Assembly (NCBI GenBank): GCA_014727915.1
Contig: WJMO01000005.1
Location: 384,001 to 448,000 of the forward strand
DNA length: 64,000 bases
Origin: Candidatus Altiarchaeales archaeon
GTDB lineage: Archaea > Altiarchaeota > Altiarchaeia > IMC4 > SCGC-AAA252-I15
Reading direction: 5' to 3'
In this document: positions 46,647 to 62,236 of the stretch, in pieces
Layout: each line of letters begins with the position of its first letter
Numbering within the stretch: the first letter of the stretch is position 1
The notes under the pieces: generated by a model
Told to the model about the DNA's origin: nothing
What the model saw: the letters and a program-made list of their open reading frames with translations, nothing else
Database searches by the model: none
Made by a program: the position numbers and the translations under genes

Positions 46647-49310
46647 ATGCCGACTAAAGGCCTTAAGAACATATTCTACCCGGAGACGATAGCCGTCATC
46701 GGCGCCAGCAACGAGAAGGACAGCGTCGGCTACTCCCTCATGGCGAACATGATAGGCCACGGGTTCAAGGGAACCGTATATCCTGTGAACATCAAATCCG
46801 ACAGCGTACAGGGAGTCCACGCCTACAAGACGGTCAAGGACATACCACGGCAGGTTGACCTGGCGGTTATTGCCACCCCGGCGAAGACGGTTCCCATGGT
46901 GATGGGACAGTGCGGGGAGGCAGGGGTCAAAGGCGCGGTCATAATCTCCGCAGGGTTCAAGGAGACAGGGGATGCCGGCTTGAAGCTGGAATCTGAGGTC
47001 AGGGAGATAGCGACCAAACACGGCATAAGGGTCGTGGGCCCCAACTGCCTCGGCGTCATAAACCCACGGATAAACCTGAACGCCAGCTTCGCGATAGACA
47101 TGCCCCTGGAGGGGAACATAGCCTTCATCTCCCAGAGCGGCGCCCTCTGCTCGTCCATAATTGACTGGGCCAACGATGTGGGCATAGGGTTCAGCAACTT
47201 CGTGTCAGTGGGCTCAATGCTGGACGTGGACTACGGCGACCTGATAGACTTCTTCGGCAGGGACCCGAAGACCAAGAGCATCGTCGTCTACATGGAGTCA
47301 GTGAAGAACGCGGGTAAGTTCATGAGCGCGGCCAGCGGGTTCGCACGGCAGAAGCCCATAGTCATAGTCAAGTCCGGCAGGTACGAGGAAGGCCGGAAGG
47401 CCGTCGTATCCCACACCGGCGCCATCGCAGGATCCGATGACGTCTACAGCGCCGCCTTCCAGAGGGCGGGTGTGGTCAGGGTCAACGAGGTCGGCGACCT
47501 ATTCGACATCGCCGAGAAGCTCGCGAAGGGCCCGTTGCCTAAGGGCCCAGATATCGCGGTCATCACCAACGCAGGCGGCCCCGGGGTGATGGCAACCGAC
47601 AAGATAATCGAGGCCAACGGCAAGCTCGCTGAGATACCAGAGGACATGATAGGCCGTTTGGACAAGGTATTGCCGGCGAGCTGGAGCCGCAACAACCCAT
47701 TGGACGTCCTGGGCGATGCGGGAGCCGACAGGTACAGGCCAGCAGTTGAGGAATGCATAAAGGAGCGGGGCGTGGACAGCGTGATGGTGATGCTGACACC
47801 CCAGGCGGGCACGGACATCACAGAGACGGCTGAGGCGGTGGCTGAAGCGTGGCGTGGCAGCGGAAAGCCAATAACGGCCTGTTGGATGGGGGGCAGGTCC
47901 GTTGAGAGGGCGAAGCAGGTCCTCAGGGAGAATGACATACCCGTCTACCCCACCCCTGAAAAGGCTGTGATGCCCCTAATCGCAAGCTACAACTACGTCC
48001 ATAACCTGGAGCTCCTGCATGAGACTCCGATGGAACTGACCGACGCAGTATGCAGGGACAGGGAGAAGCTGGAGAAGATAATCGAGGAGAGCTACCGCAG
48101 CGGAAATCATGTCCTGTCGGAGCGGGAGTCCAAGGAGTTCCTCAGGGAATACGGGATAAACACGAACCATGCGGTTCTAGCCAAGACCCGGGAGGAGGCG
48201 GTGAAGGCAGCCAATGACGTCGGCTACCCGGTGGTCCTGAAGATCGACTCACCCCAGATAACCCATAAGACCGACGCCGGCGGTGTGATGTTGAGCATCT
48301 ACAACGACGCGGAAGCCGGAAAGGCCTATGATCGGATAATCGAGAACGCGACGAACTACGACGCCAAAGCGGACATAAGGGGTGTTGCTGTCATGAAGAT
48401 GGTAACGGACAGGGGTTTCGAGATGCTTCTTGGCTCCAAAAGGGACGAGGTGTTCGGACAGGTTGTGGTGTTCGGCGCAGGCGGAACCCTCGTCGAGGTG
48501 CTGCGGGACAAGAGCATAGGGCTGCCGCCTCTGAACCAGACCCTGGCCAGGAGGATGATGGAGGAGATCAAGGGCTTCAAGCTGCTGAGGGACGGCTCCC
48601 GTGACAGGTCCCCCGCGGACCTCACGGAGTTGGAGAAGGCCATCATAAACTTCAGCCAGCTGATAATCGACAACCCAGACATAGTCGAAGTCGACATAAA
48701 CCCCCTGCTCGCCTGCAAGGACAAGGTCATAGCATTGGATGCGAGGATTGTATTGGACAGGGAAAGGTCCAAGAAGGGAGGCGAGCACCTGTGCATCACA
48801 CCCTATCCGCGGGAGTACATTGAAGAGTATGAGCTGGCCGCGGGGGAGAGGATACTGCTCCGCCCGATCAAGCCCGAGGACGAGCCCAGGATGAAAGAAC
48901 TGTTCGAAAGCCTCTCCGAGAAGACCATCCACTACCGGTTCTTCCACGCCATAAGGGAGATAACCCATGAGATGCTCGTAAGATACTGCCACAACGACTA
49001 CAACAGGGAGATAGCGATCGTCGCCGAGAAGGACGGGCAGTTCAGGGGTGTGAGCAGGCTCATGTTCGACCCCGGGGAGAGGAGCGCGGAGTTCGCGGTG
49101 GTGGTTACGGACAGATGGCAGAACAAGGGCTTGGGGTCGAAGCTAGTGTCCAAGATAGTCGACGTGGCGAGGTCCAAGGACCTGGAGAAGGTCTATGCCA
49201 CGGTGATAAAGGAGAACCATGCCATGAAGCACGTCGCCGAGAAGCTGGGCTTCAAGGTCGAAGCCACCGACGACCCGCAGATAGACGCGCTGACGTTACG
49301 ACTAAGATGA
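46647..49310 (+). CDS. pat: NDP-forming acyl-CoA synthetase alpha/beta + GNAT fusion (Pat-type protein lysine acetyltransferase)
   Basis: GPNCLG, SQSGA, SHTG, TNAGGPG, NPLD, HKTDAGGV, DINPL, DARI; then PYP linker and GNAT domain (RPIKPEDE, EFAVVV, QNKGLG). Confidence 0.9.
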   Translation: MPTKGLKNIFYPETIAVIGASNEKDSVGYSLMANMIGHGFKGTVYPVNIKSDSVQGVHAYKTVKDIPRQVDLAVIATPAKTVPMVMGQCGEAGVKGAVIISAGFKETGDAGLKLESEVREIATKHGIRVVGPNCLGVINPRINLNASFAIDMPLEGNIAFISQSGALCSSIIDWANDVGIGFSNFVSVGSMLDVDYGDLIDFFGRDPKTKSIVVYMESVKNAGKFMSAASGFARQKPIVIVKSGRYEEGRKAVVSHTGAIAGSDDVYSAAFQRAGVVRVNEVGDLFDIAEKLAKGPLPKGPDIAVITNAGGPGVMATDKIIEANGKLAEIPEDMIGRLDKVLPASWSRNNPLDVLGDAGADRYRPAVEECIKERGVDSVMVMLTPQAGTDITETAEAVAEAWRGSGKPITACWMGGRSVERAKQVLRENDIPVYPTPEKAVMPLIASYNYVHNLELLHETPMELTDAVCRDREKLEKIIEESYRSGNHVLSERESKEFLREYGINTNHAVLAKTREEAVKAANDVGYPVVLKIDSPQITHKTDAGGVMLSIYNDAEAGKAYDRIIENATNYDAKADIRGVAVMKMVTDRGFEMLLGSKRDEVFGQVVVFGAGGTLVEVLRDKSIGLPPLNQTLARRMMEEIKGFKLLRDGSRDRSPADLTELEKAIINFSQLIIDNPDIVEVDINPLLACKDKVIALDARIVLDRERSKKGGEHLCITPYPREYIEEYELAAGERILLRPIKPEDEPRMKELFESLSEKTIHYRFFHAIREITHEMLVRYCHNDYNREIAIVAEKDGQFRGVSRLMFDPGERSAEFAVVVTDRWQNKGLGSKLVSKIVDVARSKDLEKVYATVIKENHAMKHVAEKLGFKVEATDDPQIDALTLRLR

Positions 49311-50419
49311 AGACCGGGATAGTATACCACGACGACTACCTGAAGCACAGGCAGGTGGAGCACCACCCCGAGTGCCCGGAGAGGCTTGAGACAACCCTCG
49401 AGTACTTCCTGAAGACGGGGTTGACCGACCAGGTGGAGATGATCAATCCAGGGCCCGCAGCCGTGGAAGCGCTGACCAGGGTCCACTCCAAAGAGCATGT
49501 GGAGTACATCAGGTGCAGGAGCAGCCAGGGCAAGGGAAAGTTCTCCGTCATCGACTCCGACACCTACATCTGCAGCGAAACCTACGATGTGGCTTTGCTC
49601 GCAGCTGGTGGTGTCATAGCGGCGGGGGAGGCCGTGTGGAAGGGGGAGCTGGACAACTGCTTCGCGCTGGTGAGGCCTCCCGGACACCATGCCTCCATGA
49701 ACCAGGCCACCGGCTTCTGCTACTTCGACAACACAGCGGTTATGATAAAGCACCTGCAGGCCAACCAGGGGCTGAAGAAGGTTTTCCTCTTCGACTGGGA
49801 CGCCCACGCGCCCAATGGCACGATGGGCACGTTCTACAGTGACCCCAGTGTGCTGAACATGAGCATACACCAGGATCCCCGGTCGTTCTACCCCGGCCAC
49901 GGTTTCGTGGACCAGATAGGCGAGGGCGCTGGCAAGGGCTATACCATCAACTTCCCGGTTCCAGGAGGCTCGGGGGACGCGGACTTCATCCACTTCATCG
50001 ACGAGTTCGTAATGGCCAGGGTGAAGAAGTTCAAGCCGGATATGATCGCCGTCTCAGCAGGCCAGGACAGCCACCGAGACGACCTGATATCCCAGCTTCA
50101 GGTGACCGACAACGGATACGCTCTGATGACCCGCAGGTTCATGGAATTGGCGGATGAGCTATGCGGTGGAAAGCTGGTGTTGGCCTTGGAGGGCGGCTAC
50201 AACCTGAAGACCCTTCCAATAACCCATCATACGATCACATCCACCCTCCTGGGAGTCAATGACCCGGAGCCTGCGGGCGGAGAGGTGCTGGATTCCACAA
50301 GGCAGATGATGTCCGAGCTACGGAACAAGCTGAAGGCCTCCACAATATGGCCGGAAGCCCCCGAATACGGCGAGTCAGCCGATTTAGAGGAGGGTGACAG
50401 GAGATGCACGCCCCCCTGA
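49307..50419 (+). CDS. Zn-dependent histone deacetylase-family protein
   Basis: HPECPERL, RPPGHHA, GFCYFDN, DWDAH, SIHQ, AGQD, LEGGY. Start MKTGIV overlaps the pat stop (ATGA). Confidence 0.92.
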   Translation: MKTGIVYHDDYLKHRQVEHHPECPERLETTLEYFLKTGLTDQVEMINPGPAAVEALTRVHSKEHVEYIRCRSSQGKGKFSVIDSDTYICSETYDVALLAAGGVIAAGEAVWKGELDNCFALVRPPGHHASMNQATGFCYFDNTAVMIKHLQANQGLKKVFLFDWDAHAPNGTMGTFYSDPSVLNMSIHQDPRSFYPGHGFVDQIGEGAGKGYTINFPVPGGSGDADFIHFIDEFVMARVKKFKPDMIAVSAGQDSHRDDLISQLQVTDNGYALMTRRFMELADELCGGKLVLALEGGYNLKTLPITHHTITSTLLGVNDPEPAGGEVLDSTRQMMSELRNKLKASTIWPEAPEYGESADLEEGDRRCTPP

Positions 50420-50949
50420 AAGCGGATAACACGGTGCTCGTAGTCGTGGACATGCAGGAGAAGTTCAAGCCTGTCATACGCGGCTGGGACGGTGTTGTGG
50501 ACAATGTCGTGAAGCTGGTGAAGGGGTTCAAAGTGCTTGGCGTGCCTGTGGTCCATACGGAACAGTACCCCAAGGGGTTGGGGAGGACCGTCCCCAAACT
50601 ATCCGGCGAACTTGATGGTGATCCGATCGAGAAGCTGCATTTCAGCTGCTTCGGAGACGATGGCTTCTGCCAACGCCTCGGAGAGCTTCAGAGGGAGAAC
50701 ATAGTACTGTGCGGCATCGAAGCCCACGTGTGCCTGCTGAAGACCACGTTGGATGCTTTGGACAGGGGCTATAGCGTCCACTATGTGCTGGACGGAACAT
50801 CCTCCAGGAGGCCGTTGGACAAGGAGGTCGCGGTGGAGCGTGTCATACAGGCGGGCGCGTATACTGTGACATCGGAGATGGTCCTGTTCCAGCTTTTGGA
50901 CAGGTCCGGGACCGAAGAGTTCACGGAGATAAGCAAGCTCGTGAAGTAG
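50404..50949 (+). CDS. Isochorismatase-family cysteine hydrolase
   Basis: VVDMQEK, TEQYPKGLG, FSC, GIEAHVC. Confidence 0.9.
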   Translation: MHAPLKADNTVLVVVDMQEKFKPVIRGWDGVVDNVVKLVKGFKVLGVPVVHTEQYPKGLGRTVPKLSGELDGDPIEKLHFSCFGDDGFCQRLGELQRENIVLCGIEAHVCLLKTTLDALDRGYSVHYVLDGTSSRRPLDKEVAVERVIQAGAYTVTSEMVLFQLLDRSGTEEFTEISKLVK

Positions 50950-50953
50950 CTGC

Positions 50954-51202
50954 TTACTGTTGTAATCTTATCGTATGCCCTTTCAACGAAGCCTTCCGGG
51001 CCTTGGTCTTGGAGCGTATCTCCTCAGTGACCTGGTGCTTGTCCCTCTCGCCGAGTGAGGACTTGAGCATCTTGACATTGACTTTCTTGTGCTTTCTGAG
51101 TATGGTCCTTATCTCGGCGATCAGTTCAGGAGTCACTCCCTTCTTTCCAACCCGGACGGTGATGTCCTGTTCACCGGGCTTTTCCCTTGAGCTTCTTGAC
51201 AT
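50954..51202 (-). CDS. YhbY/CRM-domain RNA-binding protein
   Basis: VRVGKKGVTPELIAEI...VNVKMLKS...GHT. Confidence 0.8.
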   Translation of the reverse strand: MSRSSREKPGEQDITVRVGKKGVTPELIAEIRTILRKHKKVNVKMLKSSLGERDKHQVTEEIRSKTKARKASLKGHTIRLQQ

Positions 51203-52154
51203 TCTTAGAGCCTGTCAGGAACATGGCCGTCCTGAACTCGGCGATGAACAATTCGACGTATTCCCTCACTGCCTTCTCCCCGCCAGATCCGTAGGCGCGC
51301 AGCACTGGCAGGGCTGCCCCGACCACGTCGGCGCCCAATGCTATGCACTTGGCCGCGTCCAACCCGTTCCTAACGCCTCCCGAGGCTATCAGCGGCTTCT
51401 TCACCCTGCTCAACTCCGCGATGGACTCTGCTGTCGGGGTGCCCCAGTCGGCGTATGTGACTCCGACAGACTTCATCTTCCCGTTGGTTCGGTGGCTTTC
51501 CACGAGGCTCCATGACGTCCCTCCCAGTCCTCCGCAGTCCAGGGCGGCGACCTTCAGCTTCCGGGCGGTCTTCAAGTCCAACCCGGAACCCACCTCTTTC
51601 ACAATGACTGGCACGTCCATTTTGGAGGCGACCGCGTTGATCTTCCCCGTCAATCCCCTGAAGTCGGTGTCGCCTTCGGGTTGTATGACCTCCTGCAATG
51701 GGTTGAGGTGCAGTGCCAGGGCGTCCGCGTCGATCATCTCGACAGCCTTCCTGCAATCCTCCAGACCGTATCCGCAGTTCAGCTGGACCGCGCCCAGGTT
51801 CCCGATCAACAGTATGTCTGGGGCTGCATCCCTCACCTTGTATGTCGTCGCTAGCCTGGGGTTCTCGAGGGCTGCCCTCTGGCTGCCCACGCCCATGCCA
51901 AGCCCGTATTCCTGCGCTACCCTCGCCAGTGCCTTGTTAACCTTCCTTGCCTCGCCGGTACCGCCGGTTATGGCCTCGAATATCAGGGGGAAATCAAGCC
52001 GCTTCCCGAGGAATCTCGTGCTGGTCTTCACCTCTGAGAGGCTTATCTCAGGGCTTGCCCTGTGGTCCAACCTGACCAGGTCGAAACCGGCATAACCTGC
52101 CTCCACATCCTCTTCCATGCAGATTCTCAGATGGTCCTTTTTCCTGCCTTTCAC
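51171..52154 (-). CDS. fni: Type 2 isopentenyl-diphosphate isomerase
   Basis: RKKDH, ITGG, GVGSQR, HLNPLQE, KEVGSG, GGTSW, ASGGVR. Start uncertain. Confidence 0.95.
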   Translation of the reverse strand: MKGRKKDHLRICMEEDVEAGYAGFDLVRLDHRASPEISLSEVKTSTRFLGKRLDFPLIFEAITGGTGEARKVNKALARVAQEYGLGMGVGSQRAALENPRLATTYKVRDAAPDILLIGNLGAVQLNCGYGLEDCRKAVEMIDADALALHLNPLQEVIQPEGDTDFRGLTGKINAVASKMDVPVIVKEVGSGLDLKTARKLKVAALDCGGLGGTSWSLVESHRTNGKMKSVGVTYADWGTPTAESIAELSRVKKPLIASGGVRNGLDAAKCIALGADVVGAALPVLRAYGSGGEKAVREYVELFIAEFRTAMFLTGSKNVKKLKGKAR

Positions 52155-52205
52155 CGTAACTGAAATTAAGACGCAGTAGGATATAAACATGTATTCGAAA
52201 AACAC

Positions 52206-52541
52206 ATGCAGATGAGGCTTAAAATAACCTATGATGGGCGGGAGATGGGATTGCGGGCGGTCTACATATCCCTCATGCTGTTCATAAAGCTCTCCCTCCT
52301 GTTCTACCCGTTTCCTCCGTTGATAGTCGCGAAGTTCCCATTCACCCTCGTGGACTTGGCTGTCATACTGGTGCTCTTGAGGCTGGTGGTCGCTGATAAC
52401 CGCGTCGGCTACGTTCTCTCGGTGCTTTTCTTCACGGTCACGACCGTGGGAGTGATACTCTCATATGGGGTCCTCGACCTAGCATGGCCCTTCTATCTGA
52501 TAGCGGTGGTAGCTGCGCTGACTAAGGCGTTGAAGAAATGA
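52206..52541 (+). CDS. Small membrane protein
   Basis: Four hydrophobic segments. Confidence 0.55.
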   Translation: MQMRLKITYDGREMGLRAVYISLMLFIKLSLLFYPFPPLIVAKFPFTLVDLAVILVLLRLVVADNRVGYVLSVLFFTVTTVGVILSYGVLDLAWPFYLIAVVAALTKALKK

Positions 52542-52553
52542 CCTTGGATGGGT

Positions 52554-53543
52554 TCACATGTTCCTGTCTATGAGGAAGTCGGCTATCTCGATGAGGCTAT
52601 CTTTGGCTTCGCAGTCGGGTAGTATTCCCAAAGCTCGTTTCCCCTCCGATATGAGCTCCGCGACCCTTTCATCCGCGTATTCTATGCTTCCGGTCTCGCC
52701 GAGCTTGTCTATTGCCGCCTTCACGTCCTCGTCGGATGCGCTGTCATTGCCCAACACCGCCTTTATCATGTCCCTGTCTTCCTCGCATGCTTTGGCGAGG
52801 GCGTGGACTATTATCAGGGTCTTCTTCCCCGACCTTATGTCCGACCCCACTGGTTTGCCCAGCTTTTTCGCGTCGGCGGTGAGGTCGAGCACGTCGTCTT
52901 TGATCTGGAACGCGACTCCGCAGTTGCTACCGTATATTCTGAAGGCTTCGAGTTGCTCTTCGCTGCCGCCGCCGACGATGCACCCTATCTTCACCGCAGC
53001 CTCTATCAGCGCCCCCGTCTTCTTCCCGATCATGGTCATATACTGGTCTTCTGTGACCTGGTCGTCCTTCTCGAATAGCATGTCCATTATCTGCCCTTCC
53101 TGGAGTTCCGTGTTGGCTTCCACGAGGGCTTCAACGGCCTTTAGTACTCTCGAGTCCTCTACGCCCTTGTTCCGCATGTCGATGAGCGCCTTGAAAGAGC
53201 TTGAGTAGAGGGTGTCTCCGATCATGATGCCCATCTCATCACCCCATATGCTGTGGACTGTTGGCTTCCCCCGCCTCTCCTCGTCATGGTCCATTATGTC
53301 GTCGTGGACGAGGGTGAACGTGTGCAGCAGCTCCACCGACGCCGCGGCGGGGAGTATGGACTCCGGGTCTCCCCCGACCGCCTCGGCGGCGAGCAACGTG
53401 AGACAGGGCCTTATCCGCTTTCCCCCCGCGTCCAGGGGGTGCAGTATCATCTTCTGGATCTTCTCATCCCCTATCTTCGAGTACTCCCTCATCACCGGCT
53501 CCACTGCCGCGCACCGGTTGATTATGACCTTCTTCACGTCCAT
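52554..53543 (-). CDS. idsA: Geranylgeranyl diphosphate synthase (short-chain polyprenyl synthase)
   Basis: GGKRIRP, FTLVHDDIMD...RRG, EGQ, KTGAL, FQIKDDVLD, GKPVGSD. Confidence 0.93.
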   Translation of the reverse strand: MDVKKVIINRCAAVEPVMREYSKIGDEKIQKMILHPLDAGGKRIRPCLTLLAAEAVGGDPESILPAAASVELLHTFTLVHDDIMDHDEERRGKPTVHSIWGDEMGIMIGDTLYSSSFKALIDMRNKGVEDSRVLKAVEALVEANTELQEGQIMDMLFEKDDQVTEDQYMTMIGKKTGALIEAAVKIGCIVGGGSEEQLEAFRIYGSNCGVAFQIKDDVLDLTADAKKLGKPVGSDIRSGKKTLIIVHALAKACEEDRDMIKAVLGNDSASDEDVKAAIDKLGETGSIEYADERVAELISEGKRALGILPDCEAKDSLIEIADFLIDRNM

Positions 53544-53659
53544 GATGTGTAAATACTATCCCCTAATCCCTATTTATACCATCCCCAAACGTCCGGGTTT
53601 AAATGTTAAACCTCCAGTATTTATATTTTGGTTTCAATTTTTGACATAGGTGCGGGGCG

Positions 53660-54427
53660 ATGGTTCATGAGCGGATTTCTGACATCATGACCCATAGGGT
53701 CATCACAGTCAACGAGTCCATGACAGTCTACGATGCGGCCTGCGCCATGGCGTCCAAGAACGTGGGTTCCATCCTGATAACCGAGAAAGCATCTTTGAAG
53801 GGCATACTCACCGAACGGGACATCCTCCGCCAGATAGGTCAGGGGAACAACGTTGATAAAATGCTAGTCTCCGACCTGATGACGAAGAATGTGATGACCG
53901 TCACATCAGACACCAGAATATCGGATGCTGGCAGGATCCTCGTGGAGCACAGGTTCCGCCGGCTGCCTGTGGTAGACGGCGGGGTGCTGGTTGGTATCGT
54001 GACCTCCACGGACCTGGTGTTCGAGCTGAACTCCCATCAGATATCAGGGCACATAAGCGATTACATGAGCACCACAACCTACACTGTCCGGTCTTCAGCC
54101 TCTGTCGGCGACGCGGTGGAGGTGATGATCAAGAACAACATCGGATCGGTGATCGTAGTGGACGACGATGACATCAAGGGCATACTCACCGAACGGGACG
54201 TGTTGAAGGCAGTTGTAGCCAAGAAAAAATCTTCCGACACCATCATATCCGAGGTCATGTCCCGCAACACACTGAACGTCCACCCCGACACGCAGATAAG
54301 CCACGCCTGCCACCTCATGTACTACAACGGCATTCGCAGGTTCCCCGTAGTAGACTACGACCACAAACTCGCCGGCATGATAACCGAACGAGACCTACTA
54401 CAAGCACTCATAAAACTCACAAGCTGA
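53660..54427 (+). CDS. Four-CBS-domain protein
   Basis: Repeated GILTERD / GIVTSTD / GMITERD motifs. Confidence 0.9.
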   Translation: MVHERISDIMTHRVITVNESMTVYDAACAMASKNVGSILITEKASLKGILTERDILRQIGQGNNVDKMLVSDLMTKNVMTVTSDTRISDAGRILVEHRFRRLPVVDGGVLVGIVTSTDLVFELNSHQISGHISDYMSTTTYTVRSSASVGDAVEVMIKNNIGSVIVVDDDDIKGILTERDVLKAVVAKKKSSDTIISEVMSRNTLNVHPDTQISHACHLMYYNGIRRFPVVDYDHKLAGMITERDLLQALIKLTS

Positions 54428-54444
54428 GACTCTGGATTTTTTGC

Positions 54445-55101
54445 CTACTGGACTCCCTTCACAGTTTCCACTTTAACTTCTTCCAGGCTTTCCACTATCA
54501 GGTCGGGTTTTTGCCTTTCCAGTTCTTCTTTTGTGTGTGTTCCTGTGGTGACGGCGATGACTTTCATCCCCGCTGACTTAGCTGCCTGCACTCCGAACAC
54601 GGAATCCTCCAATACAACGCAGTCTGATGGTTTGGCATCGAGTTCTTCCGCTGCCTTGAGGAATATGTCGGGTTCCGGTTTGCTCTTCAGTCCTTCGCTG
54701 CGGTAGACTTCAGCGTTGAAGTATTCTCTCACCCTGCAGGCGTCAAGTATTGCCTTACCGGTGTCGGGGGTGTTCGCCGTCGCCAACGCCAGCTTAAAAC
54801 CCGCGTTCTTCAGCGAATCCAAGATTTCAACCGCCCCGGGGAGCAACTCGCAGGTGCTCAGGTTCTCAACCACCTTCCGACGGCGTTTCACCACGAAATC
54901 GTCGTAGTCCACGTCCTCAACCCCCTTCTCCTCGAAGAAGGTCCTCGCGATCTCCTCTGCAGTCCGGCCGTAATGGGATTCCAGGTCCTCCCGGGCGAAC
55001 TCCAGCCCGTATTCCTCCGAAACAAGCTCCTGGAAGCCTCTAAGGTGCAATTCGAACAGGTCCACCAATGTGCCGTCCAGGTCGAAGATGACATAGTCCA
55101 T
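54445..55101 (-). CDS. HAD-family phosphatase (beta-PGM/CbbY-like)
   Basis: FDLDGTLVD, LATA, KPEPDIF, LEDSVFG. Confidence 0.9.
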   Translation of the reverse strand: MDYVIFDLDGTLVDLFELHLRGFQELVSEEYGLEFAREDLESHYGRTAEEIARTFFEEKGVEDVDYDDFVVKRRRKVVENLSTCELLPGAVEILDSLKNAGFKLALATANTPDTGKAILDACRVREYFNAEVYRSEGLKSKPEPDIFLKAAEELDAKPSDCVVLEDSVFGVQAAKSAGMKVIAVTTGTHTKEELERQKPDLIVESLEEVKVETVKGVQ

Positions 55102-55145
55102 AGAAGAATATATTATGCAACAAAAACAATTATAAGACAACTAAG

Positions 55146-56096
55146 ATGAAATCGCATTCAAACGCCATCGCATACCCGGGGTTGCCGGTGGTGTTCGCCG
55201 AAGGCTTCAGAGACTACAGGAAGAGGATATCAGGCCACAGCCACGCGAGCTTCGCCATAACAGACGCCTACGAGACCGTGAAGACCGAGACCAGCGCGGA
55301 AACTGTCAAAGCAGGGGTCGAGTTCACATTCGAAGGAAAGAGGCCAGCCGACCCCCGCTCGTCCGCCACCATGGACGTCATCCGCGAGATGATCTCCCTC
55401 GCAGCCGAGCGCACCGGCGTAAACGTCAGCTCCATCAACCACGGCATACTCACGGGCAGCAGCGACTCAGGCGCCGCAGCGCTGGTCACCGCATTGGACG
55501 ACCTCCTCGGCCTGAACCTGCCGCTGTGGCAGCTCAACGAGATCGCTAGCAGAGTCAGCGAAACAGCTTACAGGAGCCTCATCGGCGGTTTGAGCGAGCA
55601 CGTCATAAACGACGAAGGAGACGTCCGCATACGGCAGCTGAAGAAGGCCTCAGCATTCAAAGACCTAATGATCTACGCGATACCCTTCGATCTGAAGAGG
55701 TTCAGCGCAGACGACCTTCACAAGCGCGTGTCACAGCACCCCCGGTACAGCGACCGCCAGCTCCAGGTCGAATACAGGCTGGAGAACCTCAACAACCTAG
55801 CCAGGGGCGGCGACCTCCAGGGCATACTCGAATTGATGGAGTCCGAGGCCCGGACAGTCCATCAGATGTTCAATGATTTGGGGATGGAGGTCATCAAACC
55901 CGATATGAGGGAGGTCACAGAACTCGTCCAGGACATGCGGTCCAGCAGCCTGAAGGTGTACTGGAACGTCGCCGGCGGCAGCACAGTCTACGTTTTCACG
56001 TTGAAGAAGCATGCCAAGGAGGTGACCCGCGAGCTCAAGGACCGCGGATTTAAATACAAGCACTTCAAAGTAGCTGATGGGGCTAGAGTCATATGA
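55146..56096 (+). CDS. GHMP-family mevalonate-3-kinase-like protein (diphosphomevalonate decarboxylase homologue lacking the DAGPN Asp)
   Basis: AYP, GILTGSSDSGAA, VSETAYRSLIGGL, KRFSADDLH and NVAGGSTVYV match recalled motifs of Thermoplasma Ta1305 (GILSGSSDAGAA, VSESAGRSLFGGL, TGGSNVYV). Confidence 0.7.
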   Translation: MKSHSNAIAYPGLPVVFAEGFRDYRKRISGHSHASFAITDAYETVKTETSAETVKAGVEFTFEGKRPADPRSSATMDVIREMISLAAERTGVNVSSINHGILTGSSDSGAAALVTALDDLLGLNLPLWQLNEIASRVSETAYRSLIGGLSEHVINDEGDVRIRQLKKASAFKDLMIYAIPFDLKRFSADDLHKRVSQHPRYSDRQLQVEYRLENLNNLARGGDLQGILELMESEARTVHQMFNDLGMEVIKPDMREVTELVQDMRSSSLKVYWNVAGGSTVYVFTLKKHAKEVTRELKDRGFKYKHFKVADGARVI

Positions 56097-56335
56097 TGGA
56101 CTTGATTGGTTGGCTGTCCAGCATGTTACATGGCAGTGGCAGGTACGTTTCAAGCAGGCACTCCCGGGAGCACCTATACCACAGCATCGAATGCGAATGC
56201 CCCTACCTCAAGAACATACAGAAAGGGAACAAGATATTCTACAGGAACCGGGACCGGGCTGCCAGCAACGGACTGAAATACTGCAGGATATGCCGGCAGC
56301 AGACGATGCAGAAAACACTCAAAGACTACACTTGA
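56093..56335 (+). CDS. Small Ada-type Zn-binding domain protein
   Basis: YVSS...YH...C...I...N...A...G...CRIC pattern; ATGA overlap with the upstream gene. Confidence 0.55.
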   Translation: MMDLIGWLSSMLHGSGRYVSSRHSREHLYHSIECECPYLKNIQKGNKIFYRNRDRAASNGLKYCRICRQQTMQKTLKDYT

Positions 56336-56376
56336 CCCTCTTTTATACTTTTTTTACGAGTATCTTGTGATGTAAG

Positions 56377-57309
56377 ATGGCTGAAGGATACGGTTACGGG
56401 AAGACCATACTGTTCGGGGAGCATTTTGTCGTCTACGGGTTGCCAGCGATCGCGTCCGCGTTGGGCAACAAGACCACTGCGGTCGTGGAAGACGCGGGCA
56501 AGTACGAGCTCGTGGACGACCGGCCTGCAACGCCCCAGTACAAGAAGGAGAAATACGAAGAGCAGGTCGAATCCAACAAGCTCATATTCGACGCCTGCAA
56601 AGTGGACGTCGAGAAGACACCCCTGAAGATAACGTTGGCTGGTGACCTATACGCGGCCTCGGGTGTCGGCGCGTCCGCCGCGTCCGCTGCAGCCATCGCA
56701 AGGGCGTTGAACGACCACTTCCAACTCGGCTACGACGACAAGCGCATCAACGAAGTAGCCTACGAGGGGGAGAAAGGCTACCACGGGAAGCCCTCGGGTA
56801 TCGACAACACTGCAGCAGTCTACGGGGGTCTCATATGGTTCGTGAAGAACCTCGAAGGCGGTGCGAACACCATGGAACGGTTGAAGATGCCCGAGCCCAC
56901 GGAGATAGTTTTGGGCAACACCGGGCTGACCTCCAGCACCAAGGAGGTCGTCGGCGACGTGCGCGCCAACAGGGAAGCCGAACCTGAAAAGTATAAGAAG
57001 ATATTCGATGAATACAGTGAGATCGTGAAGTCAGCACGTGAAGCGCTCACCTCAGGAGGCCTGAAGGCGGTGGGCGAGCTGATGAACCGGAACCACAACC
57101 TCCTACAGGAGATAACCGTCTCCTGCAAGGAACTGGACTTCCTAGTCGAGCTCGCTCTGGACAACGGAGCCTACGGGGCCAAGCTGACAGGCACCGGCCG
57201 AGGAGGCCTCATGCAGGCATTGACGCCCGGGAAGGAACTCCAGGACAAGGTCGCAGCCGCCATGGAAAAAGAGGGTTTCACCACGTTCAAGACCCGGATA
57301 GGCGTCTGA
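56377..57309 (+). CDS. mvk: Mevalonate kinase
   Basis: GKTILFGEHFVVYG, GVGASAA, HGKPSGIDN, GAKLTGTGRGG. Confidence 0.92.
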   Translation: MAEGYGYGKTILFGEHFVVYGLPAIASALGNKTTAVVEDAGKYELVDDRPATPQYKKEKYEEQVESNKLIFDACKVDVEKTPLKITLAGDLYAASGVGASAASAAAIARALNDHFQLGYDDKRINEVAYEGEKGYHGKPSGIDNTAAVYGGLIWFVKNLEGGANTMERLKMPEPTEIVLGNTGLTSSTKEVVGDVRANREAEPEKYKKIFDEYSEIVKSAREALTSGGLKAVGELMNRNHNLLQEITVSCKELDFLVELALDNGAYGAKLTGTGRGGLMQALTPGKELQDKVAAAMEKEGFTTFKTRIGV

Positions 57310-57317
57310 AATCCCGC

Positions 57318-57734
57318 CTATCCTACCAGGTCCATCCACAGTGCTATCAATAGCGCGACCCCGGAAAGGGCGAATATTATCAGGAAGTTGGCCTGCTCCT
57401 TCCAGTTGTCCTGGCTGCACACGATCTCCGCCAGCAGCATGTACTCGCTTTCGCTGAGGTCAGAGCCGGAGACGAGCTTCTCCTTCAACCCCTCAGACCT
57501 TATAATCTTCGACCTCCTCCGCGACTCCCTGTACTTGAATATGAAGAATATGAAGAAACCCGCAACCCCCACATACCATGACAGTCTCGCGTACATGGGA
57601 TTAACACTGTCCAAAGGGCCTATTACCCTCAAAGCGACCGTTGCAATAACGCCGATGAGGAAGAATATCCAAGAACTCTTTGAGTCCCTGCACACCCCCC
57701 TCATACTGCATGTGCGACATTCAGATCCAGCCAT
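57318..57734 (-). CDS. Membrane protein with N-terminal CxxC-x5-C
   Basis: CRTCSMRGVC followed by three TM segments. Confidence 0.6.
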   Translation of the reverse strand: MAGSECRTCSMRGVCRDSKSSWIFFLIGVIATVALRVIGPLDSVNPMYARLSWYVGVAGFFIFFIFKYRESRRRSKIIRSEGLKEKLVSGSDLSESEYMLLAEIVCSQDNWKEQANFLIIFALSGVALLIALWMDLVG

Positions 57735-57769
57735 TATGAGATTAATAAACAACACCCAGTTAAAAAAGT

Positions 57770-58051
57770 TTACCTATTCTTTCTCTTCTCTTCCATAGTA
57801 AGCAGGTCGAGCTTGGCCCTGTCGGTCGTCAATTCGTCCTGGAGCTTGACTATGATGTCCTTCATCTTCCGGTTCTGGGCCAGCAGCTTCCGGATCTTCA
57901 TGGACTTCTGGTCGTCGTACCTGCGTCCGTACTCGTCTATGGCCGCTTCCTCAAGCTCCTTCTCCCGCTTCGCAAGCTCCTTGGCAAGCCGGGCGTTCTC
58001 AAGCTTCAGCTGCTTGTTCTCCTCAAGCACTTCCCCCAGATCCCATGACAC
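57770..58051 (-). CDS. Small coiled-coil protein
   Basis: Heptad-rich E/K/L sequence. Confidence 0.6.
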   Translation of the reverse strand: MSWDLGEVLEENKQLKLENARLAKELAKREKELEEAAIDEYGRRYDDQKSMKIRKLLAQNRKMKDIIVKLQDELTTDRAKLDLLTMEEKRKNR

Positions 58052-58119
58052 CGTAGGACACCATTAACTCTACTTGCCGGCAGGCTATAAAAACCATCCA
58101 GTAACCTCATGGAAATGAT

Positions 58120-58503
58120 TCAATCCACTGTCACGGTGTCGCCGTCGACTTTCACAGTGTCCCCGGTCTTTATCCTGCTGATGTCCACCTGGTCGACGGC
58201 GGGTATGTCGCTGATTATGCAACCCACGGCGACGATGGTCTCGCACTCGCTGTTTATCATCGCCTTCGGGCCGGTTCCCAGCTTCGCCAGCTGGTAGATG
58301 GTGTAGGGGCCTACGGTGCTTCCCTTCCCGAATGGGAATACAAGGATCTTATCCTTTACGGAGACGCCGTCGAGTGCGTTGTCCTTGTCCGCTATCTTCC
58401 CTGTCTCAGGGTCAACGCCCCCGTAGAATGATATGGGGTCCTTCGAGACCAAAGCTTCACCCTCCACGGTTCCCCTGTTGATTATCCTTCCCTTCATCTC
58501 CAT
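58120..58503 (-). CDS. Phosphomevalonate dehydratase small subunit (AcnX swivel, DUF126)
   Basis: ISFYGGVDPETG, GKGSTVG, AVGCIISDIP. Confidence 0.9.
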   Translation of the reverse strand: MEMKGRIINRGTVEGEALVSKDPISFYGGVDPETGKIADKDNALDGVSVKDKILVFPFGKGSTVGPYTIYQLAKLGTGPKAMINSECETIVAVGCIISDIPAVDQVDISRIKTGDTVKVDGDTVTVD

Positions 58504-59693
58504 TTTCCAGTCACCGCCGCGTCAAGGCACTGCTCGAAGCTGCCGGTCTTCACCAGCATCTTGTTCTTGCCCCGGCAGTAGAAGCATGCCTTAGCGCTTG
58601 TAGTCGCAACGTTCTTGAACCTGCCCTTCAACGGGGCCACCACCATGCACGTGTCGCATGCGAACTTCCCCCCCGCCTTCTCTATAACTTCCGTGTAGCC
58701 GCGGGTGTCCGACAGCTGCTTCGTGGGCCTCGCAGTGGCAATCCACAATTCAACACCGTCCTTCACCTTCTTTCCCTCCAGGAAGTCCGCTATCTCGCCT
58801 ATCTCTGCTATGGAGCAGTGGGGGCATCCGAGGGACACGAACTCTATGTCCCCGGTGTCGTCGTTCAGCGAATCATATGACTCCTTCAGGTCCTTCGCAG
58901 TCACCGTGATGCTCTCACCCGGCGCCTTGTGCTTCTCGGCCTCCGGGGTCATGTCCTCGATGTGGTATATGGGTTTGCTTCCGTAGGTGACCACCGAGGC
59001 GCCGAAGCTCTTAAGCTGGTCAAGCGAAGCAGACTTCAAACCCCTGATGTAGGGTATCTTCCCCTTGGCGTTGTTGCCTATGAAGTACCCTAGGGCTCCG
59101 AAGTCCGGCAGCGACTTCACATCGGCTTCCACTTCGAAGGTTATGTCAGGCTCCCTGTTCTCCTCCAGGTGCAGCCCGTAGGCGGGTGTCTTACCGATCA
59201 TCGCCGCAGCTATGGCGGACGGCCCGCCCTCCCGGTTGGTGCGGGCGCCGACAACCGAGTTGATGAAAGTGACAGCTGATGATTCGCTCCAGGCGATGTG
59301 CTCCCCATAGTGTGGGAGGTTCCCTATCAGATATGGGGTGCAGCTGCAGCATGTTATGACTCCCATCCTCTCAAAGGCTTCGATGACCTTCTCCTGCTTC
59401 TCGGCGAAATCCGGGGATATGCCCAGGTTCTTCCAGTTCTCCAGGTCCATCCCGGCAGGGTTCAACGTGGTCGTGACCTTCACCTGCCCGTCCTCCGCCA
59501 GCTCCGCCAGGTATTCGAGGCCGGGATCTCCCAGGTTGTGGTAGGATACTCCCGCGATCTGCACGGACCTTATGGGTATGAGGTTCTCCGCCCCGTATAT
59601 CTCCCCCAAGGCGACGAGTATCTTCATGCTCTTCGCAGCGGCGTTTCCCGCCCCTCCCGCGAGGATATTCTCCTCCTCCTTCGTCAGATGCAT
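58494..59693 (-). CDS. Phosphomevalonate dehydratase large subunit (AcnX, DUF521)
   Basis: GVSY, TTLNP, CSCTPY, WSESSA, ARTNREGG, GCPH, DTCMVV, TSAK. Confidence 0.9.
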   Translation of the reverse strand: MHLTKEEENILAGGAGNAAAKSMKILVALGEIYGAENLIPIRSVQIAGVSYHNLGDPGLEYLAELAEDGQVKVTTTLNPAGMDLENWKNLGISPDFAEKQEKVIEAFERMGVITCCSCTPYLIGNLPHYGEHIAWSESSAVTFINSVVGARTNREGGPSAIAAAMIGKTPAYGLHLEENREPDITFEVEADVKSLPDFGALGYFIGNNAKGKIPYIRGLKSASLDQLKSFGASVVTYGSKPIYHIEDMTPEAEKHKAPGESITVTAKDLKESYDSLNDDTGDIEFVSLGCPHCSIAEIGEIADFLEGKKVKDGVELWIATARPTKQLSDTRGYTEVIEKAGGKFACDTCMVVAPLKGRFKNVATTSAKACFYCRGKNKMLVKTGSFEQCLDAAVTGKWR

Positions 59694-59749
59694 TACACTA
59701 CACCCTGGTATCCGATGAGGTTATGTATTTGAAAACTCTTTAAAAACGT

Positions 59750-61033
59750 TCACTCGCCCAGGTTGGCCTTCAGGAACGCATCCCTGTCCTTGTCCCAGGG
59801 TATCGTCGCGTCCAACGCCACCTTCGCGGTCATAAGCCTGTCTGAGCCTTCTATCTTGCATGCGCTGGCGTCCAGGCTGGAGCCCTTGTCCTGCCAGACC
59901 TTGGCGTCCTTGTCCATCTGGCACCTTGTCGCAATAGCCCACTCCAGGTCGTTGAGGTCGTATATGTCTATGTCGTCGTCGACGACGATGCAGTGCTTCA
60001 GGCTTCCATGGCCTTTGAACGCCGCCTCCCCTGCCTTGATGCCGTCGTCGTCGTTCTTCTTCTCTATCTGCACTATGGCGTGCAGCCAGCTGCACCCGCC
60101 CGGCGACAGCATTACGTTCTTGCAATTCGCCACCTCGTTGACGGCCCTGTAGATGGTGGGTTCCTTGGGCATGCCCATCAGCAGCCGGTGCTCGTTGTAT
60201 GCGGGCAGTAGGCCCTGGTATATGGGGTCCTTCCTGTGGGTGATGCACTTCACCGTGAACACGGGCTCGTCCCGTACCTTGTCGAAGGTCCCGCTGATGT
60301 CCGGGAACGGACCCTCCTCGTGGGTTTCCGAAGCGGTGATGGTGCCCTCCAATACGAGTTCCGCATCCGCTGGTACCTCAACGTCTATGGTCTTGCACTT
60401 CACCAGCTCCACCGGTTTCATGGAGTTGGCTATCGCCAGCTCGTTGACGTCCGGTTTAGTCGATATCGAAGCTGCCAGCGAGACGGTCGGGTGAAGGCCG
60501 AGGCATATGGCGACCTCCAATGGGTCGTTCTTCTGCATGTACTTGTAGAGGTCACGGTGGCATATGCGCGCCACCAGCTTGTCCTTGGCGACGGGGCTGG
60601 CCCGGTGGTAGTCCGCGTTCAACCCCCATTCCTCGTCGTTGGCTATCCACACGCCCGCGCTTATGTAGGGTCCCAGGTCGTTGCTAGCATGTGTTAGTAT
60701 GGGTATTCTGGAAAGGTCGGCTTCCTTCTCCACCACCTCCTGGCAGACTCCCTTCTCAACCCTCTTGGGCTCGGTCGGCTTGTCGATGACCTCTGAGATC
60801 TTGAAGAGGAGCTCGTCCCTTTCGATGCCCATCGCCCTGGCGAAGTTGTCCCGTGACGCGCACACGCCGGCGACCACCCTGTACTCCGACCCCTTCACTT
60901 TCTCGAAGAGTATCGTGTCCTTGGGATGCTGTTTGATTATCTTCGCCGCCTCAAGCTTTGGGTCAACCTCGTCCGTTACGTGTATGACCTTCTCTTCCCT
61001 CTCAAGTTCCCCTATGAAATCGCGCAAACTCAT
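59750..61033 (-). CDS. UbiD-family decarboxylase (anhydromevalonate phosphate decarboxylase candidate)
   Basis: YHR, EGPFPD, EH, VVDDDID, WAIATR, DAT; co-oriented with the AcnX genes. Confidence 0.88.
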   Translation of the reverse strand: MSLRDFIGELEREEKVIHVTDEVDPKLEAAKIIKQHPKDTILFEKVKGSEYRVVAGVCASRDNFARAMGIERDELLFKISEVIDKPTEPKRVEKGVCQEVVEKEADLSRIPILTHASNDLGPYISAGVWIANDEEWGLNADYHRASPVAKDKLVARICHRDLYKYMQKNDPLEVAICLGLHPTVSLAASISTKPDVNELAIANSMKPVELVKCKTIDVEVPADAELVLEGTITASETHEEGPFPDISGTFDKVRDEPVFTVKCITHRKDPIYQGLLPAYNEHRLLMGMPKEPTIYRAVNEVANCKNVMLSPGGCSWLHAIVQIEKKNDDDGIKAGEAAFKGHGSLKHCIVVDDDIDIYDLNDLEWAIATRCQMDKDAKVWQDKGSSLDASACKIEGSDRLMTAKVALDATIPWDKDRDAFLKANLGE

Positions 61034-61746: not shown

Positions 61747-61837
61747 TTTTGTTTAATATACTCGGATCCTTGAGTTATTAAGCATAAAATAAAATATATT
61801 GTCAATTATTTGTATTTTTTCCAAAATAATTAAAAAA

Positions 61838-62236
61838 ATGGTAAAAATAGTCTTGGATACCAATCTGCTCGTCGCCGGCAGGTGGAACAAGAGGAGCAGC
61901 TCATCGAAGATACTGGAACTCTGCTTAAAGGGCACTCTGACCCCTGTTTACACGTCTGAGATAAAAAAGGAGAACCTCTACATCCTCGGGAAGGTGAAGC
62001 CCCCCAAGGAATACATGGACATGATAGGCAAATTCTACAAGAAAGGGAAGAGAGTGAAGTCCCCCAAGAATCGCATAACCGCTTCGGTGGACAAGAGCGA
62101 CAACCGTTTCCTGGAAGCCGCCGTGTCCGGGAGGGCAGATTATGTCATATCCAACGACCATCACCTCCTGGACCTCAAAGAATACGATGGCATACGAATA
62201 CTGCGCCCAGCCGCGTTCATGAGGATGTTCCCATGA
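61838..62236 (+). CDS. PIN-domain protein (putative TA toxin, TIGR00305-like)
   Basis: VLDTNLLVAG, DKSDNRFLEAA, ADYVISNDHHLL. Confidence 0.88.
   Translation: MVKIVLDTNLLVAGRWNKRSSSSKILELCLKGTLTPVYTSEIKKENLYILGKVKPPKEYMDMIGKFYKKGKRVKSPKNRITASVDKSDNRFLEAAVSGRADYVISNDHHLLDLKEYDGIRILRPAAFMRMFP

Follow-up and report, generated by a model that had tools for sequence, protein, structure and literature searches.

A mevalonate-3-kinase-like gene among the archaeal mevalonate pathway genes of Altiarchaeota

Four variants of the mevalonate pathway are recognised, and mevalonate-3-kinase (M3K) has been taken to make up a third of the Thermoplasma-type one, a variant seen as an adaptation to acid. What, then, would an M3K-like protein do in an archaeon that carries the archaeal (Aeropyrum-type) route? 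The question is raised by a gene of Candidatus Altiarchaeales archaeon, found in a 64,000-nucleotide stretch of assembly GCA_014727915.1 (contig WJMO01000005.1, positions 384,001 to 448,000, or G000:C12:384001-448000 in our numbering; hereafter the window). The genome measures 1.81 Mb in 13 contigs and is 90.6% complete. Positions 51171-61033 of the window form an isoprenoid-precursor gene cluster in which a GHMP kinase, P0001, is encoded beside mevalonate 5-kinase (MVK), the two subunits of AcnX and a UbiD-family protein. The original prediction, made from the sequence alone, took P0001 for an M3K relative and not for an ordinary phosphomevalonate decarboxylase (PMD) or diphosphomevalonate decarboxylase (DMD), and this is borne out by the tree, the residues and the fold.

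P0001 matches Pfam M3K_C at 66.3 bits (cut-off 27) and MVD-like_N at 57 bits, and M3K_C was present on all 57 of its homologues listed. Among the NCBIfam models M3K (NF040848, 162.7 bits) ranks above PMD (NF040704, 82.7 bits) and DMD (TIGR01240, 54.7 bits), all three scores lying under the respective cut-offs of 440, 475 and 171 bits. The described M3Ks are Ta1305 of Thermoplasma acidophilum (4RKP, 4RKS, 4RKZ) and PTO1356 of Picrophilus torridus; Ta1305 was the best match both in sequence and in fold. A sequence search of solved structures gave it an E-value of 1.3e-25, the runner-up being a PMD at 2.9e-8. An AlphaFold (AF2) model of P0001 from a 72-sequence alignment (pLDDT 95.7, pTM 0.92) superposes on 4RKP with a template-modelling (TM) score of 0.92 and a root-mean-square deviation of 2.1; the DMD and PMD chains listed (for example 6N0X and 4DU7) gave 0.83-0.89, in accordance with the GHMP/MVD fold that they have in common with P0001. 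When 1.84 billion representatives were searched exhaustively and without a profile, only 157 proteins matched at E ≤0.001. The nearest homologues of P0001 carry the source label ‘Candidatus Altiarchaeota’. In an NCBIfam scan that covered 56 of the 150 homologues listed, NF040848 scores were 136-190 bits for the Altiarchaeota clade, 120-214 for an intermediate M3K-like group and 345-537 for Thermoplasmatales-like M3Ks, with PMD and DMD proteins making up a fourth group.

The phylogeny comprised 113 rows, of which 77 are M3K-like, 12 PMD, 21 DMD-family and 3 MBD (the decarboxylase of mevalonate-3,5-bisphosphate) or MBD-like. It was computed by an IQ-TREE quick search under LG+C20, with the Shimodaira-Hasegawa-like approximate likelihood-ratio test (SH-aLRT) as the only support and no bootstrap; matches covering less than about 280 query residues and open reading frames (ORFs) outside 280-420 amino acids were omitted. 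All 77 M3K-like rows, P0001 among them, form one superclade (SH-aLRT 100, stem 1.24) separated from all 36 PMD, DMD and MBD rows (SH-aLRT 100), and MBD is nested within PMD. P0001 thus does not group with PMD or DMD, the outcome that the original prediction had named as telling against it. Inside the superclade the Thermoplasmatales form a clade of 27 rows (support 100) and the Altiarchaeota one of 19 (support 99), and the latter is joined at SH-aLRT 94 to the other non-Thermoplasmatales M3K-like groups (those of Micrarchaeota, Heimdallarchaeota and others), apart from the Thermoplasmatales. By its sequence P0001 is a member of a distinct, Altiarchaeota-specific clade of the M3K family.

Both motifs quoted in the original prediction, FAEG in the N-terminal loop and AGGST in place of DAGPN, are found in P0001, the first at 17-20 and the second within VAGGST at 275-280, so that Ala276 aligns with the Asp of the decarboxylase motif. 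This column is Asp in 34 of the 36 decarboxylase rows (10/12 PMD, 21/21 DMD, 3/3 MBD). It is Thr in 27/27 Thermoplasmatales rows, Ala in 18/19 and Ser in 1/19 Altiarchaeota rows, and Gly in 28 and Ala in 3 of the 31 other M3K-like rows. According to the accessible part of PMC9254496 DMD, PMD and MBD, unlike M3K, conserve this Asp, and replacing it by Thr or Val in a DMD gave a 3-kinase. E139, D107, R185 and M254 occur in every one of the 77 M3K-like rows, at positions where decarboxylases most often have other residues. The E139 column is Gly in most decarboxylases, where it is part of an SGS motif that reads SET in P0001, and the decarboxylase Lys17 is Phe in all 19 Altiarchaeota rows. The YW(H)G loop of the decarboxylases, too, is replaced in P0001. 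The ATP motif GSSDSGAAA (104-112) and R143 are kept in 19/19 rows of the clade. R143 and the GSS core of the motif are invariant, and Arg143 and a related ATP motif are among the features that P0001 has in common with PMD and DMD, from which it differs in A276, F17 and SET. In S. epidermidis numbering, positions 101-111 are assigned to ATP binding and 144 to carboxylate binding (accessible part of PMC4357925). Within the Altiarchaeota clade 60 of 316 positions are at least 85% conserved, the ATP motif and the substrate Arg included.

With the Thermoplasmatales M3Ks P0001 has in common the M3K_C domain, the superclade, the lack of the catalytic Asp and the residues E139, D107, R185, D189, H192, R204 and M254; unlike them it has Ala instead of Thr at the Asp position and FAEG instead of LLGG. 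The non-Thermoplasmatales M3K-like proteins and the Altiarchaeota clade have in common a non-Asp residue at 276, R71 and F17. Arg71 as a difference between Altiarchaeota and Thermoplasmatales was dropped, as other groups have Arg at 73 or 74 and the difference is probably an alignment slip. Conserved residues of the Altiarchaeota clade's own are A18 and E19, both in the N-terminal substrate loop, and S29, T140, H198, M231 and Y282.

The cluster around P0001 contains the following features (window positions):

51171-52205, minus strand: fni/IDI2, type 2 isopentenyl-diphosphate isomerase (TIGR02151 393 bits, cut-off 281; single copy in the genome)
52554-53543, minus strand: predicted short-chain (geranylgeranyl diphosphate, GGPP-type) prenyl diphosphate synthase, here GGPPS (Pfam polyprenyl_synt 260 bits; best NCBIfam model IdsA, 376 bits, under its cut-off of 468)
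53660-54427, plus strand: stand-alone protein with four CBS domains, a possible nucleotide-sensing regulator (Pfam CBS, four stretches, 203 bits)
54445-55102, minus strand: HAD-IA phosphatase/phosphomutase-like protein, divergent from the M3K-like gene (Pfam HAD_2 126 bits)
55103-55145, no strand: AT-rich intergenic stretch of 43 bp, putative shared promoter of the HAD and M3K-like genes (TATA-like AATATATTA and AATTATAAG)
55146-56096, plus strand: M3K-like GHMP kinase P0001, 316 amino acids (Pfam M3K_C, tree, residues, model)
56093-56335, plus strand: small Cys/His-rich protein of 80 amino acids between the M3K-like gene and mvk
56377-57309, plus strand: mevalonate (5-)kinase, MVK (TIGR00549 233 bits, cut-off 163; single copy)
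58120-58503, minus strand: AcnX small (swivel) subunit, putative phosphomevalonate dehydratase small subunit (PF01989 111 bits; NF003046 182 bits, cut-off 163)
58494-59693, minus strand: AcnX large subunit, putative phosphomevalonate dehydratase large subunit (PF04412 511 bits; single copy)
59750-61033, minus strand: UbiD-family decarboxylase, putative trans-anhydromevalonate-5-phosphate decarboxylase (TIGR00148 353 bits, cut-off 245)

The gene content named in the original prediction was thus recovered in full and in place by Pfam and NCBIfam matches. The last gene is the only UbiD homologue of the genome and adjoins AcnX; on family and context it is the putative trans-anhydromevalonate-5-phosphate decarboxylase (AMPD). 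UbiD, AcnX, MVK and the M3K-like gene are each present in one copy. Isopentenyl phosphate kinase (IPK, 213 bits, cut-off 120) is encoded about 3 kb beyond the window end, and UbiX and the reductase (HMGR) and synthase (HMGS) of 3-hydroxy-3-methylglutaryl-CoA are present in the genome. The components of the archaeal route (MVK, AcnX large and small subunits, UbiD-type protein, UbiX and IPK) all score over their family cut-offs, and the majority of their genes lie in one cluster with the M3K-like gene. The described Aeropyrum-type pathway is without a DMD-family protein in the accessible part of PMC9254496; here one is embedded in the cluster. Searches of the host genome with NF008996 for mevalonate-3-phosphate 5-kinase (M3P5K) and with NF040847 for MBD gave no match at E ≤0.01 and E ≤0.1, respectively, and TIGR01240 revealed no second DMD-family gene there, matching only the M3K-like gene and, weakly, other GHMP kinases. 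These searches include the genome checks proposed with the original prediction, which found IPK and UbiX and did not find M3P5K or MBD. The archaeal mevalonate route of the host is complete, and of the Thermoplasma-type route there is a homologue of the first enzyme only. Unlike the hosts of the described M3Ks the genome has MVK, adjacent to the M3K-like gene, together with AcnX and UbiD, and lacks a match to M3P5K or MBD, so that its gene content is not that of a Thermoplasma-type pathway.

The linkage of P0001 to mevalonate genes, on which the original prediction leaned, is conserved in related genomes and not due to chance. We compared 80 named loci (80 kept of 130 confirmed) from species-representative genomes by tblastn with the window proteins and an M3P5K query. 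In all 20 Altiarchaeota loci the M3K-like gene lies among mevalonate or isoprenoid genes (MVK, IPK, GGPPS, IDI2). MVK is found downstream of it in 12/20, within 700 bp in nine of them and with gaps of 28-42 bp in five; the HAD gene is present in 15/20, divergent and within 700 bp in 11; GGPPS is present in 12/20 and IDI2 in 10/20; and the CBS protein (at least 35% identity) lies upstream of the HAD or M3K-like gene in 4/20. M3P5K was found by tblastn in none of the 20. In other lineages (Micrarchaeota, Heimdallarchaeota, Bathyarchaeia, Aenigmatarchaeota, Marsarchaeota and others), by contrast, M3P5K accompanies the M3K-like gene at 29 of the 32 loci, 27 times within 700 bp, whereas the Altiarchaeota clade has MVK instead. 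The 28 Thermoplasmatales loci have neither MVK nor M3P5K within about 6 kb. Five M3K-like genomes outside the phylum all have an M3P5K-like match of at least 137 bits, with an MBD-like gene (218-386 bits) in three and a DMD-family gene in two. As a replacement for MBD no conserved enzyme gene of unassigned function recurs among the ORFs downstream of the M3K-like gene in eight loci; these ORFs comprise IPK, a NUDIX hydrolase, an adenylate kinase, one GHMP ORF with a weak likeness to MVK, and housekeeping genes of no relation. Neighbours seen at a single locus are IPK (L064), the NUDIX hydrolase (L057) and the weak MVK-like GHMP ORF (L119).

Outside Altiarchaeota the M3K-like gene and M3P5K form a tight two-gene module (29/32; loci L069-L095, L103, L112, L116 and L126). 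A natural fusion of the two was also met in the representative library: P0079 (547 amino acids) has an M3P5K part at 8-201 (NF008996, 213 bits, cut-off 250) and an M3K part at 220-545 (NF040848, 369 bits), supporting a functional coupling of both kinases outside Altiarchaeota.

Our survey of the phylum covered 61 Altiarchaeota genomes, our own included; these genomes are related and the counts are not independent. Close M3K-like orthologues (36-65% identity) are present in 23 of the 61, from three families (f1, 19/20 plus our own genome; f2, 1/1; f5, 2/2). No orthologue was found in f6 (0/22), in f9 (0/8) or in one f1 genome (G046, 87% complete), and in the four f8 genomes the matches to P0001, at about 25% identity, are DMDs over the cut-off. 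AcnX is present in 52/61 genomes (f1 18/20, f6 21/22, f9 8/8, f8 0/4) and in 21 of the 23 carriers, the exceptions being G032, which has a DMD over the cut-off, and G035, which is 71% complete. Among the 61 genomes a DMD over the cut-off occurs only in f8 (4/4) and in G032, and an M3P5K over the cut-off in none. Eleven genomes gave weak matches to the M3P5K model, of the 2-phosphoglycerate-kinase type (33-103 bits); in the three of them that carry the M3K-like gene, the weak matches are on other contigs. The phylum has two types of MVK, one 42-79% identical to the window MVK (f1, f2, f5 and part of f9) and one 31-37% identical (f6, f3, f4, f7 and part of f9); both occur together in four f9 genomes. 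The type found beside the M3K-like gene thus also occurs in f9 genomes without that gene.

From the place of P0001 in the M3K family, the missing decarboxylase Asp, the intact ATP and substrate motifs, the conserved gene neighbourhood and the lack of detectable partners we arrive at a best explanation overall, with a probability of roughly 0.55, in which P0001 would be a non-decarboxylating 3-kinase on mevalonate or mevalonate-5-phosphate and an accessory branch to the archaeal route. The substrate, product and physiological role that we infer are as follows. P0001 would use ATP to phosphorylate (R)-mevalonate, or mevalonate-5-phosphate from the downstream-encoded MVK, at the tertiary 3-hydroxyl, and the 3-phosphorylated product would be released without decarboxylation. 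Isopentenyl diphosphate (IPP) would be made by the ordinary archaeal route, that is by HMGS, HMGR, MVK, the AcnX dehydratase, the UbiD decarboxylase with UbiX, IPK and IDI2, and the completeness of that route argues for an accessory branch and not for a Thermoplasma-type pathway. As its role we prefer a side branch in which a kinase and a phosphatase would act on the pool of mevalonate or mevalonate-5-phosphate, as a reservoir or for flux control; MVK, encoded in the same locus, and the HAD phosphatase, encoded divergently, would be its partners. The HAD gene probably begins with the ATG at 55102 and not at 55140, so that the protein would open with MDYVIFDLDGT, in which the DxDG motif (FDLDGT) is intact. 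Its nearest solved structures are beta-phosphoglucomutases (E 3e-23), and orthologues of at least 160 bits occur only in genomes with the M3K-like gene. The 43 bp between the two genes may serve as their shared promoter region.

Several points weigh against a 3-kinase side branch. The score of P0001 on the M3K equivalog NF040848 is far under the cut-off, and its identity to Ta1305 is 25-26% in the structural alignment, so that the same substrate specificity is not assured; the substitutions peculiar to the clade (A18, E19, S29, T140, H198, M231, Y282) may signal another substrate. No assay of this clade, or of any M3K-like clade outside Thermoplasmatales, was found in the literature. A kinase and a phosphatase acting on one compound would make a futile cycle. 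Weaker HAD paralogues (120-150 bits) have AcnX or IPK as neighbours and are seen in kinase-free genomes as well, suggesting that HAD may serve the pathway generally and not this kinase; the HAD family is tied to the mevalonate pathway in general, and the kinase-adjacent copy is specific to carriers. Finally, with the genome 90.6% complete, M3P5K and MBD may lie in its missing part. This last concern is softened by the other carriers, in which neither DMD nor M3P5K over the cut-off occurs, except for the DMD in G032.

The kinase could instead take part in a productive route. Together with the adjacent MVK, acting in place of M3P5K, it would make mevalonate-3,5-bisphosphate, and an enzyme unrelated to MBD would remove the 3-phosphate to give isopentenyl phosphate, or trans-anhydromevalonate-5-phosphate feeding UbiD, possibly as a back-up independent of Fe-S clusters and prenylated flavin mononucleotide (prFMN). 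The replacement of M3P5K (29/32 loci in other lineages) by MVK at the same position in Altiarchaeota argues for such a route, and the retention of the gene across three families and its constant place among isoprenoid genes also speak for it. We nevertheless consider it unlikely. No MBD, PMD or DMD homologue that could remove the 3-phosphate was found, nor any conserved enzyme gene of unassigned function in the cluster, where the other conserved ORFs without assignment are small. The host has the whole archaeal route, and its single-copy AcnX and UbiD score as high as in kinase-free genomes; the kinase was not found in any of the 30 f6 and f9 genomes, 29 of which have AcnX; and the adjacency of MVK may merely reflect a general clustering of pathway genes. 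It is above all the lack of a candidate for the last step, with the persistence of the kinase in G032 (which has DMD and no AcnX match), that argues against a productive route. The same evidence weakens the Fe-S/prFMN-independent bypass put forward in the original prediction, as there is no decarboxylating or eliminating enzyme to complete it and AcnX and UbiD of the host are intact and single-copy. Doubtful in our view is also a fuller version, an undescribed pathway variant of an Altiarchaeota sub-lineage in which co-transcribed M3K-family kinase and MVK would produce the 3,5-bisphosphate, an MBD-unrelated elimination would convert it to isopentenyl phosphate or trans-anhydromevalonate-5-phosphate, and HAD would tune the pool. 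If true, this could be an Fe-S/prFMN-independent back-up or, alternatively, a means of starting the pathway, since the decarboxylase of the latter depends on a prenylated cofactor that derives from the pathway's own product. The evolutionary intermediate that the original prediction also suggested is not favoured, since in the quick tree the clade groups with M3K-like sets that have M3P5K next door, which fits the acquisition or retention of the kinase alone.

It is improbable, in our estimate, that P0001 has kept the fold and chemistry of M3K for some other 3-hydroxy acid or alcohol outside the mevalonate pathway. The clade-specific loop FAEG (LLGG in Thermoplasmatales), with five other conserved positions, and the score well under the equivalog cut-off would fit such a change, and Picrophilus M3K also phosphorylates 3-hydroxyisovalerate and 3-hydroxybutyrate (accessible part of PMC4357925), pointing to a permissive pocket in the family. 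Against this, the M3K-distinguishing E139, D107, R185 and M254, as well as H192 and R204, are retained, and 20/20 Altiarchaeota loci place the gene in a mevalonate or isoprenoid setting. A decaying or non-catalytic remnant of the Thermoplasma-type module, either inactive or a ligand-binding regulator of MVK, would account for the two undetected partner enzymes and for the gene not being found in G046, but appears very unlikely: in the named loci the gene has an open frame of full length, with 19 full-length rows in the tree, the AF2 model is confident throughout, and while identity within the clade drops to 36%, the 60 positions that include the ATP motif and the substrate Arg are kept. An ordinary but divergent PMD or DMD, as several source annotations of homologues would have it (‘mevalonate pyrophosphate decarboxylase’) and as the common fold would allow, is already contradicted and hardly credible, given Ala for the catalytic Asp, the replaced Lys17 and YW(H)G loop, the low TIGR01240 and NF040704 scores and a tree that sets P0001 apart from every decarboxylase row.

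The gene combination itself has been tabulated before. M3K was said in 2016 to have no homologues outside Thermoplasmatales (accessible part of PMC5177888). Altiarchaeota sequences have since been placed in the M3K tree of PMC11052028 (Microorganisms 2024), whose accessible supplementary gene counts give, for the present metagenome-assembled genome (MAG; GCA_014727915), M3K=1, M3P5K=0, MBD=0, acnX1, acnX2, AMPD=1, MVK=1 and IPK=1; a table of the same paper lists another Altiarchaeota MAG with M3K, PMK and DMD. The word ‘undescribed’ in the original prediction was hence too strong. In its accessible text PMC11052028 treats the homologues as part of the spread of the Thermoplasma-type pathway and makes no remark on their orphan state, synteny or residues. 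In full-text searches, with most subscription journals outside their coverage, no paper came up that deals with what an Altiarchaeota M3K homologue does. As far as these sources reach, the M3K-family kinase in this new pathway context has been tabulated and not studied. Its interest lies in the long maintenance of an M3K-family kinase (orthologues down to 36% identity) in hosts of the archaeal route where its usual two partners are not found. If it is active on mevalonate or mevalonate-5-phosphate, 3-phosphorylated mevalonates would have a second role in regulation, in storage or in a new route, and schemes for the evolution of pathway variants would need a ‘kinase alone’ branch. The question is directly and cheaply testable with three or four recombinant proteins and commercial substrates.

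Some further observations concern the neighbours of the kinase. A second HAD-IA paralogue, 35-39% identical to the kinase-adjacent HAD, lies beside IPK in our own genome, just past the window end (G000:C12:449529-450167 and 450901-451671), and beside AcnX in four others (G008:C118, G009:C137, G048:C111, G049:C92), and is also seen in kinase-free f9 genomes. We speculate that it may be a pathway-linked phosphatase, such as one that supplies UbiX with its monophosphate prenyl donor. The 80-residue ORF between the M3K-like gene and mvk has counterparts of 71-81 residues at the same site in four loci (L051, L052, L053, L055), with 17 invariant columns that include C36, C64, C67 and H30, and is absent where the gap between the two genes is about 30-40 bp (L058, L059). 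It has no Pfam or NCBIfam match; Atlas structures point to an Ada_Zn_binding-like fold (TM 0.58-0.67), which we regard as a lead only. A 97-residue frame at 56077-56370, at first seemingly conserved, was rejected because the overlapping 80-residue frame has full-length orthologous ORFs.

Between mvk and AcnX (57318-58067) overlapping ORFs without family match run on both strands (145 residues minus, 136 plus, 93 minus, 84 plus); the 145-residue frame shares 58% identity with an ORF that has the same position in L052, and the 93-residue frame 38% with one in L051. Upstream of the cluster, a plus-strand gene at 46647-49310 encodes 887 residues with NDP-forming acyl-CoA synthetase domains and a C-terminal GNAT domain, an architecture like that of Pat-type protein acetyltransferases. 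Next come a histone-deacetylase-family protein (49115-50419, plus strand), whose ORF as called overlaps the first by about 195 bases, and an isochorismatase-family hydrolase (50404-50949, plus strand); the genes of 46647-50949 may form a protein acetylation/deacetylation module. Beyond the cluster, a PIN-domain protein (61799-62236, plus strand; PF13470, 54 bits) is followed by a 121-residue ORF without family match, and the two may be a toxin-antitoxin-like pair.

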